From contig NZ_JBHUPY010000007.1 in NCBI RefSeq assembly GCF_042688385.1, positions 194,110 through 258,109 of the forward strand: a stretch of 64,000 nucleotides of DNA. Reading direction: 5' to 3'. Of this stretch, positions 33,008-36,211 are shown piece by piece (within the stretch, counting starts at the first letter, position 1; each line of letters opens with the position of its first letter). The notes under the pieces were generated by a model that worked only from the letters and a program-made list of their open reading frames with translations, ran no database searches and had not been told where the DNA came from. The translations under genes and the position numbers were made by a program. The stretch comes from Herpetosiphon sp. NSE202 (GTDB lineage: Bacteria; Chloroflexota; Chloroflexia; Chloroflexales; Herpetosiphonaceae).

Positions 33008-34201
33008 TCATTGCTCATCCCGACGCTGCACAAACCGAAATTCGCCGCCTTTTTCGACATCCATCACATGGCCGCGCCAAACGATGCGCTGCGGGGCAAG
33101 CAAAGCCTGAATCAATTGCAGGGGAATTAGCAATTCTAAAAATGGCACGAGCAGCCAATAGCGGCGTGGCGTGGATTGCTCAAGATACTGCTGATCGATT
33201 TGGATGAAATTCAATAGCCCAAACAGCGTGTAGATCGCACTAAACCAGCGCTGGCGTTGGCTTGGGCGCAGCACGGTTACAATTGCCAAAATTAAAGGAA
33301 ACATGGTTGGCACAATCACCAAACACAACAACAAACTGCGTTCGCGCCGATTCAAATGGCGCAACAACGATTCGCGCGGAAAAATAAACCAGCGTTGAAT
33401 CAAGCTCCGATAACGCTGAGCATTGGTCACGGTCGTGCGAATTGCATGGCGCATGCTGGTTTGTTGCAAGCCCAAGCCAGCCTGTTTGACCCGTTGCGCC
33501 ACCGCAAAATCATCGGCCAAAATATGCTCTAGGCCATTGAAGCCATTCAATTGCTCCAGCACGTCGCGCCGCAACGCATAGAACATGCCATTAATCGTAA
33601 ATGGCTTGCTCACTTGAATATAGGGCACATAGGTCAGCAAGCTATTGCTATTGACAAACAGCGCCACCAAACTCGACCAAGCATTATCAAACGAGCGATA
33701 GTAGGGCAAACCAAACGCCAAGCCAACGCCCGCTTGATCCAGCCATGGCAAACACGCTTCCAAGCCATAGGCTGGCAGGCTAGTATCATCATCGAGCACG
33801 CAAATGATCTGGCCTTGGGCTTGCGCCAAACCAGCAATTAACTTGAAAGTTTTGGGATTCACCCGCTCCGCAGGTGCAGGCAAGCTGATAATCCGAATTG
33901 TTTGGTTGGCATATTCAGCTTGCAGTTCATGGCAAAGTTGCTGCGCTACCGCATCATTGTCATCAATCAGCCACAACCATTCGCGCCCATAGCTGCTTGG
34001 TGCATCCAAGTTAGCCCGTAAACAAGTTGCTAAATGCGGATCGCCGCTCAAAATTGGTTGCAGCAAACTCACCAAAGTTGTCGCTGGCTCGCGCTGCGAT
34101 TGAGGCGTGGGCTGGCGAAAAAAACGCCAAACTTGCCACCACTTCCAGCAGCGTTGGCCAAGCATTAAGCCGCACAACAGCAGCCAAAGCCGTTTAATCA
34201 T
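33008..34201 (-). CDS. GT21/GT2 ceramide-glucosyltransferase-like membrane glycosyltransferase (paralogue 2)
   Basis: Parallels UGCG motifs: LLQPILSGDPHL, VNPKTFKL, CVLDDDTSLP, GLPYY, NGMFYALRRDVLEQ, QRW..., VWRGH. Start ATG overlaps upstream stop (ATGATTAA). Confidence 0.7.
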   Translation of the reverse strand: MIKRLWLLLCGLMLGQRCWKWWQVWRFFRQPTPQSQREPATTLVSLLQPILSGDPHLATCLRANLDAPSSYGREWLWLIDDNDAVAQQLCHELQAEYANQTIRIISLPAPAERVNPKTFKLIAGLAQAQGQIICVLDDDTSLPAYGLEACLPWLDQAGVGLAFGLPYYRSFDNAWSSLVALFVNSNSLLTYVPYIQVSKPFTINGMFYALRRDVLEQLNGFNGLEHILADDFAVAQRVKQAGLGLQQTSMRHAIRTTVTNAQRYRSLIQRWFIFPRESLLRHLNRRERSLLLCLVIVPTMFPLILAIVTVLRPSQRQRWFSAIYTLFGLLNFIQIDQQYLEQSTPRRYWLLVPFLELLIPLQLIQALLAPQRIVWRGHVMDVEKGGEFRFVQRRDEQ

Positions 34202-35360
34202 GATTTTGCTCCTTGCCCAACCACTGCGCTGCTGCCAAATGCCGCAACCGCATGCGCTCGCCACGCCAAACAATTGTGTCATCGCCAAGCAAGCCCCAGA
34301 GCATCAGCAATGGGTCAAGCAATGTTCCCAAAATACTCAACGGCCAAGCCCACCACGGCGTTGTTTGCTGGCAATAACGCCGCATTTGCCAAGCATGCAA
34401 GCTCAATTGCGCCGCCAAACAAGCCACCAACCAAGGCCGTAGCTTCGCATTAGGCAAACTTGCCAACGCCAACAGCGGCGGAATCGGCTGAGCAGCGCTC
34501 GTCAGGCCAGTTACTAACTTATCGCGCTGATTAAGCTCAGGCAACATCAACACCCGCGGAATCGTAAACCAGCGCTCCATCTGCAAGCCATAGGCCTTGA
34601 GGTTGGCAAAATAATTATCAACACTGTAGATTAATGGCGTTTGTAGATTGCGCAAGCCATGTGCTTGTACCCGCCGCGCCAACTCATGATCATCATCAAT
34701 TCGCCCATGCATGGCTTCAAAACCACCAATTTGCTCAAATACGCTGCGTTGCAAGGCAAATTGATGCCCAGTAATCGTGTATGGCTCGGTCAGCGTCGCT
34801 ACGCCCACGTAGCTTGGCAAGGCATTGGCGTTCACAAAATTGCTCATCAAAGCCGAAGGCAAATTTTGCCAATTCGTATAACAGGCCAAGCCGAAAATCG
34901 CCCCAACCTGTGGCTGTAACAGATACGGAATTGCTTGGTGCAAGCCATCAAGCGGCAACGTCACATCGTCATCAACAAACCAAACCACATCGGCTTGGGC
35001 TTGGGCCAACGCTGCGCGCATCTTACCCAATTTCGAGGCCAAGCGGCCCCAATCAGGCTCAATTTGCAAAATGGTAATTGCATGATTTGGATTGTTTTGC
35101 TGTAGCGCAGCACAGATTGCAAATGTTGCCTGATCAGCGCGATCAACCACCCAATAATGATTAAGCTGGCCAGAATAGCGCAACTTCAGCCGTTGCTCCA
35201 ACGTTGTGGCCAAATCGAATACGCCATGGGTCAAAGGCTGAATTAAATCAATGCTTGGCCAATCATCAGGCGCAGCAGGCTTGGGCTTGGCAAAAAAGCG
35301 CCGCAACACCAACCAACGCCAGCAGCGGTCAAGCAAATACCACAGGGCCAACAATCGCAT
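34194..35360 (-). CDS. GT21/GT2 ceramide-glucosyltransferase-like membrane glycosyltransferase (paralogue 1)
   Basis: Same motif set (LIQPLTHG, FVDDDVTLP, LQRSVFEQIGGF, ERW, VWRGERMRL). TAATG overlap with the upstream hydrolase gene. Confidence 0.7.
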   Translation of the reverse strand: MRLLALWYLLDRCWRWLVLRRFFAKPKPAAPDDWPSIDLIQPLTHGVFDLATTLEQRLKLRYSGQLNHYWVVDRADQATFAICAALQQNNPNHAITILQIEPDWGRLASKLGKMRAALAQAQADVVWFVDDDVTLPLDGLHQAIPYLLQPQVGAIFGLACYTNWQNLPSALMSNFVNANALPSYVGVATLTEPYTITGHQFALQRSVFEQIGGFEAMHGRIDDDHELARRVQAHGLRNLQTPLIYSVDNYFANLKAYGLQMERWFTIPRVLMLPELNQRDKLVTGLTSAAQPIPPLLALASLPNAKLRPWLVACLAAQLSLHAWQMRRYCQQTTPWWAWPLSILGTLLDPLLMLWGLLGDDTIVWRGERMRLRHLAAAQWLGKEQNHD

Positions 35361-36211
35361 TATGTCGCCTCAATCTGCACCAACGCATAATCAATATATT
35401 CATCAATTTGGGCTAGCGAAGCGCAATGTTGGGCCTGTGGCACGCGATAATAGCTCGCCGTCGGGTAATACTGGCGCAATAATGCTTGATCACGCCGCCC
35501 AAACAAGCCATCGTGTTCAGCCACAATCATGGCCAGCTTGCCATGCCACCGCGCTGCACCCAAATGCCAATCCAGCTCGCGCCACCAGCGCAGCAAGCTC
35601 AGATAATCGTGGCGTTGCATTTTTTGCAGATTTTGCTGCAACCGCTCAGCCCAAAATGGCCGCAGCATGGTGGCCATTGGCTGCAAAAATTGCTGCGTGC
35701 CGCGCCAAAACAGCCAACGTACCAAGCCCAATGGCAAGATCGCGACCAGTGGATGCAGCAAACTAAGCCATAGCCAACGCCAACGCCGCGGCACACCAGT
35801 ATCCGAAAGCAGCAAGCCTTGAGCTAATTGAGGGCGATAGTGTAAAACTGCCTGCGCAATCAAGCCGCTATATGAGCCAGCCACAATCCAACTCGCTTCA
35901 AATTGCAAATAATTGAATAAGGCTTGCAGATTGGTCGCCAAATCAGCGAGCTTATCAATTGTGTTGGGATACGCAAGGCTAAGCACCCGATAGCGCTGCT
36001 GGCAACGATCCAGCCAACGAAAAGCCAAATCGGCTCGCGCTAAGCCACCAGGCAAAATCAACAAGCCAGGCAAATTGCCGCCAGTATCGCAAATTTCCCA
36101 TTCGTGGCCGTTGATGCGCACCCGCTGCACTGGATAGCGCTCAAGGGTTTGCTCGTAACAGGCTTGGCAATCGGCAGCGCTCACTAACTGCTCATACGCA
36201 TGCTGAATCAT
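35360..36211 (-). CDS. Alpha/beta-hydrolase fold protein
   Basis: GxSxG-type nucleophile elbow (AGSYSG). First gene of the overlapping three-gene minus-strand operon. Confidence 0.55.
   Translation of the reverse strand: MIQHAYEQLVSAADCQACYEQTLERYPVQRVRINGHEWEICDTGGNLPGLLILPGGLARADLAFRWLDRCQQRYRVLSLAYPNTIDKLADLATNLQALFNYLQFEASWIVAGSYSGLIAQAVLHYRPQLAQGLLLSDTGVPRRWRWLWLSLLHPLVAILPLGLVRWLFWRGTQQFLQPMATMLRPFWAERLQQNLQKMQRHDYLSLLRWWRELDWHLGAARWHGKLAMIVAEHDGLFGRRDQALLRQYYPTASYYRVPQAQHCASLAQIDEYIDYALVQIEAT

Follow-up and report, generated by a model that had tools for sequence, protein, structure and literature searches.

Paralogous GT21-type glycosyltransferases and an alpha/beta hydrolase in Herpetosiphon: the probable glycosylation half of a conserved bacterial lipid pathway

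We found that two paralogous membrane glycosyltransferases and an alpha/beta hydrolase of Herpetosiphon sp. NSE202 probably supply the half of an orphan, nine-gene bacterial lipid pathway that glycosylates and tailors the product; the pathway is conserved and in Herpetosiphon is split into two operons. The three genes (operon 1) and operon 2 (positions 55168-61276) lie 19 kb apart in the window, the stretch of 64,000 nucleotides analyzed here. An earlier note on this DNA had missed operon 2. The evidence comes from the layout of the genes, their paralogy, conserved motifs, protein folds, phylogeny and gene neighborhoods that recur in other taxa.

The genes of operon 1 are translationally coupled. 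All three ORFs are on the minus strand, where the earlier note had placed them. In the ORF list, the first gene encodes the alpha/beta hydrolase (ABH; 35360-36211; 283 amino acids). It is followed by GT-A (34194-35360; 388 amino acids) and GT-B (33008-34201; 397 amino acids), both encoding membrane glycosyltransferases of the GT21 type. The hydrolase stop overlaps the GT-A start by 1 nt and the GT-A stop overlaps the GT-B start by 8 nt (junction sequences ACATAATGCGA and AATCATGATTAAACGG). The ATG at 34201 is the GT-B start that gives 397 amino acids and is backed by alignment with 17 orthologs; the ORF lister had used a TTG at 34288, giving a longer product. The overlapping, coupled operon of two glycosyltransferases and a hydrolase that the earlier note described is thus observed directly.

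GT-A and GT-B share 34% identity over 365 amino acids (E 7e-60) and are paralogs. The best Pfam family for both was PF13506, Glyco_transf_21 (cut-off 21.7 bits), with 102.5 bits for GT-B (E 2.4e-29) and 74.5 bits for GT-A (E 9.2e-21). Their sole PDB sequence match was human ceramide glucosyltransferase, UGCG (26qf_A; E 8.6e-12 and 3e-9).

We found that the catalytic acidic motifs are kept in both proteins. In HMMER alignments to 26qf_A, D1 (DxxD) aligns to UGCG D89/D92, D2 (DDD) to D144, D3 (DD) to E235/D236, and RW to R275/W276. A C-terminal WRG is also conserved. These motifs are D73/D76, DDD130-132, DDDH222-225, Q260xxRW264 and WRG365-367 in GT-A, and D80/D83, DDD137-139, ADDF229-232, LIQRW267-271 and WRG375-377 in GT-B, together with QPILSGD48-54, NPK115-117 and INGMF. 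Conservation was scored over an A clade (n = 34 sequences), a B clade (n = 31) and a clade of single-copy glycosyltransferases (n = 87). The residues matching UGCG D92, D144 and D236 were invariant in all three clades, and D1, D2, D3, RW and WRG were invariant or nearly so within each paralog clade. The earlier note had ascribed the whole UGCG motif series to both proteins; the acidic motifs and RW bear this out, but (Q/R)xxRW is complete only in GT-A. A true QxxRW is confined to GT-A (Q260-M-E-R-W). GT-B has L267-I-Q-R-W, in which RW is invariant; B-clade proteins and most single-copy proteins carry L or I at the first position. Judged by these residues, with all acidic motifs, RW and WRG kept, both enzymes look active.

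Both proteins have an integral-membrane layout, with an N-terminal transmembrane helix, a cytoplasmic GT-A-type catalytic domain and C-terminal helices, and the AF2 model is a membrane protein with a GT-A fold. Structural neighbors include the polymer synthases HAS and BcsA, so the proteins could instead be HAS/BcsA/NodC-like processive enzymes of the membrane that make an oligo- or polysaccharide for secretion, with no role in lipid glycosylation. We consider this very unlikely. At about 390 amino acids with few C-terminal helices, they have the size and layout of UGCG and HpnI rather than that of the 500-800-amino-acid channel-forming synthases. Their best Pfam family is GT21, and no export or polymerase partners were found in Pfam-annotated loci. 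The family, identity and alignments agree with the earlier description of two paralogous membrane lipid glycosyltransferases of GT21 type.

Several features are shared with UGCG (CAZy GT21; PDB 26qf and related structures). It has 394 amino acids and the same order of N-terminal transmembrane helix, GT-A-type catalytic domain and C-terminal helices. D1, D2, D3, RW and the C-terminal W-R motifs align, and the reaction, in which a UDP-sugar donates its sugar to a lipid hydroxyl with inversion, is presumably the same. In contrast, D2 is D-S-G in UGCG and DDD in GT-A and GT-B, GT-B has no R or Q at the first (Q/R)xxRW position, and the Herpetosiphon genes are a tandem pair within a fatty-acid-type cluster with no sphingolipid gene context.

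The trees indicate that the glycosyltransferase genes are bacterial and not a eukaryotic import. In neighbor-joining trees (built on about 240 columns; the one eukaryotic sequence was a fragment), GT-A, GT-B and the single-copy proteins formed a bacterial clade with 96% bootstrap support that left out human UGCG and HpnI. The A clade had 99% support, and the joining of the B clade to the single-copy clade only 70%. GT-B grouped with single-copy glycosyltransferases of Fusobacterium (L022), a Pseudomonadota MAG (L027) and locus L026; HpnI grouped apart from both paralogs, with Burkholderiales sequences. HpnI also stands closer to UGCG (30% identity, 105 bits) than do GT-B (24%, 65 bits) and GT-A (23%, 55 bits). 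In the phylogenetic comparison with bacterial and eukaryotic GT21 members proposed in the earlier note, the proteins thus group with neither HpnI nor UGCG, and the label "eukaryote-type" does not hold. Orthology to UGCG (EC 2.4.1.80) was rejected on this grouping (96% bootstrap; single eukaryotic fragment).

Orthologs of each paralog, with 38-58% identity, occur in several Chloroflexota classes, and one MAG each of Armatimonadota and Planctomycetota also has relatives. An outlying GT-A copy in L011 has only 31-32% identity. GT-A was never found without GT-B (13 loci), and GT-B-type genes stand on their own in L010, L012, L022, L026 and L027. This distribution and the tree indicate that GT-B is the ancestral type and GT-A the derived paralog, and that the duplication is ancient, given orthologs across Chloroflexota classes and two other phyla.

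The earlier note had also proposed a footprint of horizontal transfer, in which eukaryote-derived glucosylceramide synthases arrived together with the neighboring gene for a major vault protein (MVP) and make a glycosyl-ceramide. The UGCG match in PDB favors this, as does the JGI automatic annotation, which labels homologs "ceramide glucosyltransferase". The gene next to GT-B is a real, although distant and short, MVP homolog, as the note had said; its PDB matches are exclusively major vault proteins (E 5e-7). However, it is on the opposite strand, convergent with GT-B, and adjoins GT-B in Herpetosiphon only. In L024, an 83%-identical relative, about 7 kb with seven unrelated genes lie between them, which argues against a functional link. 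GC, GC3 and codon usage of the glycosyltransferase, hydrolase and MVP-like genes differ from those of the genes in the window by no more than about 1 SD, and composition like the host's, an ancient duplication and orthologs widespread in Chloroflexota speak against such an import. No serine-palmitoyltransferase-type gene was found among the window's ORFs of roughly 360-430 amino acids or in Pfam-annotated related loci, and the co-conserved genes are of a different kind. Together with the low UGCG identity and the bacterial clade, these results largely refute the transfer and the ceramide product, which we regard as extremely improbable.

We found that the hydrolase has a canonical alpha/beta-hydrolase fold with a nucleophile-acid-His triad that appears catalytically intact by its residues. 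The protein scored 16.6 bits against Pfam Abhydrolase_1, under the 25.8-bit threshold; the L003 ortholog passed at 32.2 bits. Its AF2 model (pLDDT 84) matched alpha/beta hydrolases in Foldseek with probability 1.0 and TM about 0.7. The matches were esterases, epoxide hydrolases and an enol-lactonase, with RhlA at rank 40 (TM 0.66). Ser113 (in GGSYSG), Asp234 and His262 were invariant across 10 homologs. Hydrolase orthologs adjoin the glycosyltransferase pair in 8 other loci, and the pairing with an alpha/beta hydrolase drawn in the earlier note is borne out.

Operon 2 is on the plus strand; its junctions are mostly abutting or overlap by 4 nt, and the largest gap is 24 nt. The first gene (55168-56148; 326 amino acids) encodes an OleD-family NAD(P)-dependent reductase with a 3-beta-HSD/epimerase fold. 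It matched NCBIfam OleD (NF042422) over its full length with 232.8 bits, under the 580-bit cut-off, with HpnA as runner-up (104 bits) and NSDHL (6jkg) as top PDB match. Next is a lactonase-like hydrolase of the metallo-beta-lactamase fold (MBL; 56149-56964; 271 amino acids) with an HxHxDH motif. Its best NCBIfam match was the AHL lactonase AttM (71.6 bits, under cut-off) and its top PDB match an N-acylhomoserine lactonase (9khq). The third gene (56961-58259; 432 amino acids) encodes a PaaK-like adenylate-forming enzyme of TIGR02304, "F390 synthetase-related" (F390r), which scored 382 bits (cut-off 251.9); the orthologs in L003 and Fusobacterium scored 403 and 715 bits, and PDB matches were PaaK-like ligases. 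The window protein has 100% identity to a protein recorded for Herpetosiphon sp. NSE202. A GT1-family glycosyltransferase follows (58256-59509; 417 amino acids). Its top PDB matches were yeast sterol 3-beta-glucosyltransferase (5xvm/5gl5; E 2e-46, 162 bits, residues 3-411). L003 and L004 each have an ortholog at this position, and GT1 fragments are present in L026.

The fifth gene (59534-60520; 328 amino acids) encodes a KAS III / FabH-type condensing enzyme whose Cys-His-Asn motifs are visible in the translation (ATCLSF, HQAN, GNCVAAS). It scored 266 bits against the FabH subfamily NF006829 (cut-off 249). Its top PDB matches were the pyrone-forming ketosynthases CorB (4yuc, 195 bits) and 4v2p, then FabH (168 bits); matches to OleA entries were partial (about 74 bits). 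The last gene (60524-61276; 250 amino acids) encodes a short-chain dehydrogenase/reductase (SDR) with generic SDR and ketoacyl-reductase matches. SDR orthologs lie between KAS III and the ABH or glycosyltransferase genes in L003, L004, L005, L011, L015, L016, L021 and L022. The cluster showed no gene for an acyl carrier protein. FabH, SDR, MBL and PaaK-like enzymes are broad families, and sequence does not reveal their substrates.

The sterol enzymes among the best matches of the reductase and GT1 could point to a polycyclic or isoprenoid acceptor. GT-A and GT-B might act like HpnI on hopanepolyols, or like CruC on Herpetosiphon carotenoids, with the hydrolase as an acyltransferase making carotenoid glycoside esters. 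HpnI (TIGR03472), a bacterial membrane glycosyltransferase that acts on a lipid polyol, is the best-scoring curated bacterial model for both proteins and aligns end to end at about 100 bits (99.5 and 101), a third or so of the 310-bit equivalog cut-off. Identity to HpnI is 26-29%. Genuine hpnI loci carry hpnK or hpnJ next door, but no hpnJ, hpnK or shc was found in the window operon or in Pfam-annotated related loci. On the score and the gene neighborhood, identity with HpnI was rejected. The match to CruG was negligible (E 0.006), and no hpn, shc or crt genes occur in any Pfam-annotated locus. The cluster is also present in Fusobacterium and Anaerolinea, which are not known to produce pigments or hopanoids. 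Herpetosiphon does make glycosylated and acyl-glycosylated carotenoids, but the genome paper assigns their glycosylation to cruC/cruD (PMC3368417). We regard a polycyclic or isoprenoid acceptor as highly improbable.

We found that genes of operon 2 recur beside the glycosyltransferases in other bacteria. At least one of four core genes (KAS III, MBL, TIGR02304, OleD-like reductase) lies beside the glycosyltransferase gene or genes in 14 of the 20 independent loci outside Herpetosiphon. These 14 loci span Chloroflexia, Ktedonobacteria, Anaerolineae, Armatimonadota, Planctomycetota, Fusobacterium vincentii, a Pseudomonadota MAG and one unclassified contig. KAS III is co-located with the glycosyltransferases in 14 loci, MBL in 13 and TIGR02304 in 10; the OleD-like reductase is co-located with GT-B-type genes in 10. 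The SDR and the sterol-glucosyltransferase-like GT1 often accompany the core genes in other taxa. In L003 and L004 the genes form one operon in the order MBL-F390r-GT1-KAS3-SDR-ABH-GTA-GTB. This is the order of operon 2 followed by operon 1, except for the OleD-like gene, which would fall at or past the edge of the fetched flank. Core genes do not adjoin the glycosyltransferases in 6 of the 20 loci, nor in Herpetosiphon, so the linkage there rests on synteny in other genomes. For H. giganteus, H. geysericola and a 3.69-Mb contig, the contigs listed for the glycosyltransferase and F390r proteins have the same length.

The 6 loci with no adjoining core genes would suit a different reading, in which GT-A and GT-B are glycosyl-diacylglycerol synthases like Pgt that load ordinary diacylglycerol with one or more hexoses, for example to replace phospholipids, and the proximity of the core genes reflects general clustering of lipid genes rather than a shared product. 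The characterized bacterial GT21 enzymes, Pgt of Agrobacterium tumefaciens and Mesorhizobium loti, are processive and add several sugars to diacylglycerol (PMC8231724), and QxxRW is kept in GT-A. Since such bacterial enzymes exist, GT21 is no eukaryotic signature. Compared by its description, however, Pgt is a single enzyme induced by phosphate limitation, not a paralog pair in a KAS III/OleD-like/TIGR02304 cluster. Unless the genes share a pathway, it is difficult to account for adjacency to the same four to six non-glycerolipid genes in 14 loci, five phyla and several gene orders, and we consider the diacylglycerol reading unlikely.

The cluster shares four enzyme classes with the OleABCD olefin/beta-lactone and mycolate-type Claisen condensation pathways: a condensing enzyme of the thiolase fold, a reductase of the OleD family, an adenylating enzyme that depends on ATP and an alpha/beta hydrolase. 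However, the condensing enzyme is FabH/CorB-like rather than OleA-like, the adenylating enzyme is of the PaaK/TIGR02304 type rather than the OleC type, and the hydrolase nucleophile is Ser, whereas that of OleB is Asp. Beyond the four classes, the cluster has an MBL hydrolase, an SDR and three glycosyltransferases. An OleABCD-type pathway was rejected, given the reductase score (232.8 against 580 bits) and no OleA-type thiolase, OleC-type ligase or Asp-nucleophile hydrolase. Rhamnolipid synthesis (RhlA/RhlB/RhlC, with RhlG) likewise combines an alpha/beta-hydrolase fold, a GT1 and a GT2-clan transferase to make a glycolipid whose scaffold is a beta-hydroxy fatty acid. The hydrolase does match RhlA in structure, but only at rank 40, among generic hydrolases. 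The GT1 here best matches a sterol glucosyltransferase rather than a rhamnosyltransferase, and GT-A and GT-B are integral to the membrane.

The most likely role of GT-A, GT-B and the hydrolase is to glycosylate and tailor a hydroxylated lipid that operon 2 produces; we infer the acceptor, sugar donor, order of action and product as follows. KAS III, the OleD-like reductase, the SDR, the TIGR02304 enzyme and the MBL hydrolase would build a long-chain, hydroxyl-bearing lipid derived from fatty acids, probably beta-hydroxy and possibly 2-alkyl-branched or of diol type. GT-B would attach the first hexose, donated by a UDP-sugar, to a hydroxyl of the membrane-embedded lipid at the cytoplasmic face, with inversion, by analogy with UGCG, HpnI and Pgt. 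GT-A may add a further sugar or use a second hydroxyl as acceptor, and the sterol-glucosyltransferase-like GT1 may place a sugar at another position. The Ser-Asp-His hydrolase could carry out acyl transfer or hydrolysis of a thioester or ester. Lipid acceptors of GT21 enzymes elsewhere are ceramide (UGCG), bacteriohopanetetrol (HpnI, going by the name of TIGR03472) and diacylglycerol (Pgt; PMC8231724). The predicted function accords with the suggestion in the earlier note that these genes serve the synthesis or remodeling of an unusual glycolipid.

The polar lipids of Herpetosiphon are undescribed (PMC3368417), which leaves no known compound to set against the pathway, and a literature search found no description of a GT21/KAS III/OleD-like/TIGR02304 cluster. 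The lipid pathway proposed here would be bacterial, an orphan, and recurrent in at least five phyla.

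We found that the region 33008-36211 carries three open reading frames on the minus strand, in agreement with the earlier note's observation of a glycosyltransferase pair with an alpha/beta hydrolase. They are ABH (the hydrolase; 36211-35360, 283 aa) and two paralogous membrane glycosyltransferases of the GT21 type, GT-A (35360-34194, 388 aa) and GT-B (34201-33008, 397 aa counted from the ATG at 34201). The junctions of this operon (operon 1) are TAATG and ATGATTAA, as had been described. Alignment of orthologs placed the start of GT-B at the ATG at 34201 and not at an upstream TTG. 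Promoter and terminator scans around operon 1 gave sites no commoner than in shuffled sequence, and Rfam and tRNA scans of the whole window were empty. Divergent from ABH is a plus-strand gene (36327-36914) for a 195-aa multi-helix hydrophobic protein that had no match in Pfam or NCBIfam. Its position is kept in Herpetosiphon relatives, and it has a tandem duplicate in H. giganteus (locus L001).

GT-A and GT-B belong to a known family. PF13506 (GT21) was the top Pfam family for each, and the sole PDB sequence match was human ceramide glucosyltransferase, UGCG (E values of 8.6e-12 and 3e-9). The D1, D2, D3, RW and C-terminal W-R motifs align with those of the human enzyme, bearing out the UGCG motif series reported from the sequence. 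The (Q/R)xxRW form claimed for both proteins holds for GT-A (QxxRW); GT-B has LxxRW. The two are 34% identical (E = 7e-60). A comparison of 34 A-type, 31 B-type and 87 single-copy relatives showed no or almost no variation in the acidic residues, in RW, and in W-R within the C-terminal WRG; the G of that motif varies in the single-copy clade. Both enzymes therefore look catalytically competent by motif conservation.

ABH scored under the Pfam threshold. Its predicted structure and structural comparison indicate a capped alpha/beta hydrolase, and Ser113, Asp234 and His262 were invariant in the homolog alignment. The structural neighbours of ABH were generic and pointed to no particular reaction.

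We found that the glycosyltransferases are not of eukaryotic type, as the earlier note had called them. It had also suggested a phylogeny against bacterial and eukaryotic GT21 members. We built a neighbour-joining tree (Poisson-corrected distances, 240 columns, 300 bootstrap replicates) in which one sequence fragment represents the eukaryotes. On this tree, with its one eukaryotic fragment, the A-type, B-type and single-copy proteins formed one bacterial clade (96% bootstrap) that leaves out human UGCG, two HpnI sequences and three other bacterial glycosyltransferases. Within it, support was 99% for the A clade, 96% for the B clade and 70% for B plus single-copy proteins. In pairwise comparisons UGCG shared 30% identity (105 bits) with HpnI, the nearest of the three, against 24% (65 bits) with GT-B and 23% (55 bits) with GT-A.

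HpnI was also the top curated bacterial model for both proteins, with end-to-end alignment. The score was approximately 100 bits against a cut-off of 310 bits. Glycosylation of hopanoids or carotenoids thus lacks an adequate model score, and it also lacks a matching gene context; we consider it highly improbable. Synthesis of a secreted glycan agrees with the structural neighbours of the glycosyltransferases but is at odds with protein size, Pfam family and gene context, and seems very unlikely.

The claim of a horizontal transfer footprint likewise fell. When 1.84 billion representative proteins were searched exhaustively with phmmer, relatives numbered 226 at E ≤ 1e-30; at E ≤ 1e-3 there were 1200. 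Both paralogs have orthologs at 38-58% identity in Chloroflexia, Ktedonobacteria, Anaerolineae and a Chthonomonadaceae MAG; an outlying GT-A copy (locus L011) is 31-32% identical, and a Planctomycetota MAG has the B type only. Because orthologs are 38-58% identical and the paralogs only about 33%, the GT-A/GT-B duplication is ancient. The GC content, GC3 and codon usage of ABH, GT-A and GT-B, of the adjacent MVP-like gene and of a second operon described below lie within ~1.4 SD of the window's genes. Bacterial GT21 enzymes are already known: those of Agrobacterium and Mesorhizobium glycosylate diacylglycerol (PMC8231724). That GT-A and GT-B act as a Pgt-like glycosyl-diacylglycerol synthase is possible but unlikely in our estimation. 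The proposal of a glycosyl-ceramide made by enzymes acquired from a eukaryote is largely refuted by these results and is now scarcely credible. The window's only clear compositional outlier is a VanZ-like membrane protein gene (17956-18681, minus strand; 37.6% GC against a gene mean of 51.7%, z = -4.8), possibly a recent acquisition.

The MVP-like gene (31175-32695, plus strand, 506 aa) had been presented as a second eukaryote-signature gene lying beside the operon. The protein is a real MVP homolog, but a distant and short one. Its Pfam matches (Band_7, MVP_shoulder and Vault_3) were all weak; its PDB sequence matches were major vault proteins only (E = 5e-7), in an alignment that runs from the MVP repeats through the shoulder into the first part of the cap helix. 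Judged from these alignments, we class it as a short MVP/SPFH-like homolog of bacterial type. Because the gene and GT-B converge, they cannot be co-transcribed. The locus recurs in H. giganteus and H. geysericola at 93-97% identity, and the MVP-like gene adjoins GT-B in Herpetosiphon only; in an 83%-identical relative (locus L024), seven unrelated genes separate the two. We see no functional tie to operon 1. A Band_7 protein near the cluster of a Pseudomonadota MAG (locus L027, below) was considered as a counterpart of the MVP-like protein and ruled out (BLASTP E = 0.56).

Between clpS and the MVP-like gene, a 158-159-nt repeat is present twice in tandem (30713-31029, 97% identical). Its GC-rich core of ~45 nt recurs in intergenic positions at 13191-13253, 15306-15439, 20848-20995 and 49160-49281, and is also present in Herpetosiphon loci related to this one. 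The repeat resembles a dispersed element of the REP-like kind. Two further minus-strand genes, unconnected to operon 1, encode an S8 subtilase with a C-terminal cupredoxin/plastocyanin-like domain (22994-25351) and a two-HKD, PLD-type, cardiolipin-synthase-like protein (46115-47335).

We found that the glycosyltransferases belong to a larger conserved gene set. All open reading frames of the fetched loci were clustered and a gene-order map was drawn. Genes recurring beside the glycosyltransferases encode a KAS III/FabH-type condensing enzyme, a lactonase-like MBL-fold hydrolase, a TIGR02304 'F390 synthetase-related' adenylate-forming enzyme (F390r) that exceeds the curated cut-off, an OleD-family reductase, an SDR and ABH. 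Outside Herpetosiphon, the glycosyltransferase gene or genes adjoin one or more of the four core genes (KAS III, MBL, F390r and the OleD-like reductase) in 14 of the 20 independent loci. Loci L003, a Roseiflexaceae MAG in which we count the cluster as complete, and L004 have a single operon, MBL-F390r-GT1-KAS III-SDR-ABH-GT-A-GT-B.

Searching the window with the partner proteins recovered all of them in a tightly packed six-gene operon on the plus strand (operon 2; 55168-61276), in the order OleD-like reductase, MBL, F390r, GT1, KAS III and SDR. The end of upp lies 6 nt upstream. Against the OleD model, which has a cut-off of 580 bits, the OleD-like reductase reached 233 bits; F390r scored 382 bits (cut-off 252). 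GT1 best matched yeast sterol 3-beta-glucosyltransferase in the PDB (E = 2e-46); KAS III best matched CorB, which is a pyrone-forming ketosynthase, together with a close relative, and then FabH. Operon 2 is probably functionally linked to ABH, GT-A and GT-B, with which its genes are contiguous in other genomes. Since they are separate here, Herpetosiphon holds the ancestral operon in two parts 19 kb apart, and the trio at 33008-36211 is only the second part. We take the actual unit to be a conserved orphan pathway of nine genes; a literature search found no published account of the cluster or its product, and the clusters that came up were unrelated.

Two distant versions differ in content. 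In Fusobacterium vincentii SB055 (locus L022, 4153-10747) a seven-gene version with a single GT-B-type GT21 has the order SDR-GT-215-aa protein-OleD-like-MBL-F390r-KAS III. The 215-aa protein, possibly a minimal hydrolase, had no family match. The record carries a plasmid label yet is 2.1 Mb long, and the cluster is without annotation in the PLSDB table. The Pseudomonadota MAG has TetR-ABH-MFS-Aas-like-KAS III-MBL-F390r-3-beta-HSD-GT21-PAP2_3, with a lone GT21 gene. In this part of the locus (10142-11416) a membrane protein of the PAP2_3 family (phosphatase superfamily) comes after the GT21 gene, and upstream lie an MFS transporter and an Aas-like fusion of acyltransferase and AMP-binding parts. 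We take the PAP2_3 family to include enzymes of the inositol-phosphorylceramide-synthase type. This gene content hints that one lipid core can take a phospho-head group besides a sugar.

The most likely function follows from family membership: GT21 enzymes would be expected to take a sugar from a UDP-sugar and attach it to a membrane-lipid hydroxyl. The genes conserved alongside them are suited to making a hydroxylated aglycone from fatty acids, through a condensation, two reductions, the activation of a carboxylate and a hydrolysis. These enzyme classes parallel OleABCD and mycolate synthesis, but each specific membership test for Ole enzymes came out negative. GT-B-type genes occur without GT-A in five loci and GT-A always occurs with GT-B, from which we infer that GT-B may add the first sugar. 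GT-A would extend that sugar or use a second hydroxyl, GT1 would add a further sugar, and ABH would either transfer an acyl group or catalyse a hydrolysis. This acceptor, these sugars and this order of action are putative. The earlier interpretation was partly right, on the unusual glycolipid, and wrong on the link to eukaryotes, horizontal transfer and MVP.

A more specific reading is that the nine genes may direct the synthesis of a membrane glycolipid built on neither glycerol nor a sphingoid base. In this view, the core genes would give a two-tailed long-chain diol or a 2-alkyl-3-hydroxy 'ceramide mimic' without a PLP-dependent step, and ceramide-type head-group enzymes (GT21 in the window, PAP2_3 in the Pseudomonadota MAG) would decorate it. 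We regard this as unlikely. Candidate products are the alkane-1,2-diol glycosides of Chloroflexota (a 2002 study, as cited in PMC10150655) and the Thermomicrobium 1,2-diol lipids, for which PMC2615216 states that synthesis 'remains to be clarified'. Herpetosiphon polar lipids are not described (PMC3368417). The best 120 F390r matches listed were from Chloroflexota only, with no Roseiflexus or Thermomicrobium names, so this search gave the diol-lipid idea no phyletic support.

GT-A and GT-B are ordinary in kind, lipid glycosyltransferases of a known family, and the transfer story resting on the 'eukaryotic' label is wrong. The bacterial radiation of GT21-type enzymes is deep and diverse, and automatic labels such as 'ceramide glucosyltransferase' in metagenome annotations mislead. 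The pair is a handle on a compact, widespread pathway found in Chloroflexota, Fusobacteriota, Planctomycetota, Armatimonadota and Pseudomonadota. Because the operon has only eight or nine genes, which some genomes keep contiguous, expressing it in another host and analysing the lipids is straightforward. Such work could bring to light a new class of membrane or surface glycolipid, including in human-associated Fusobacterium.
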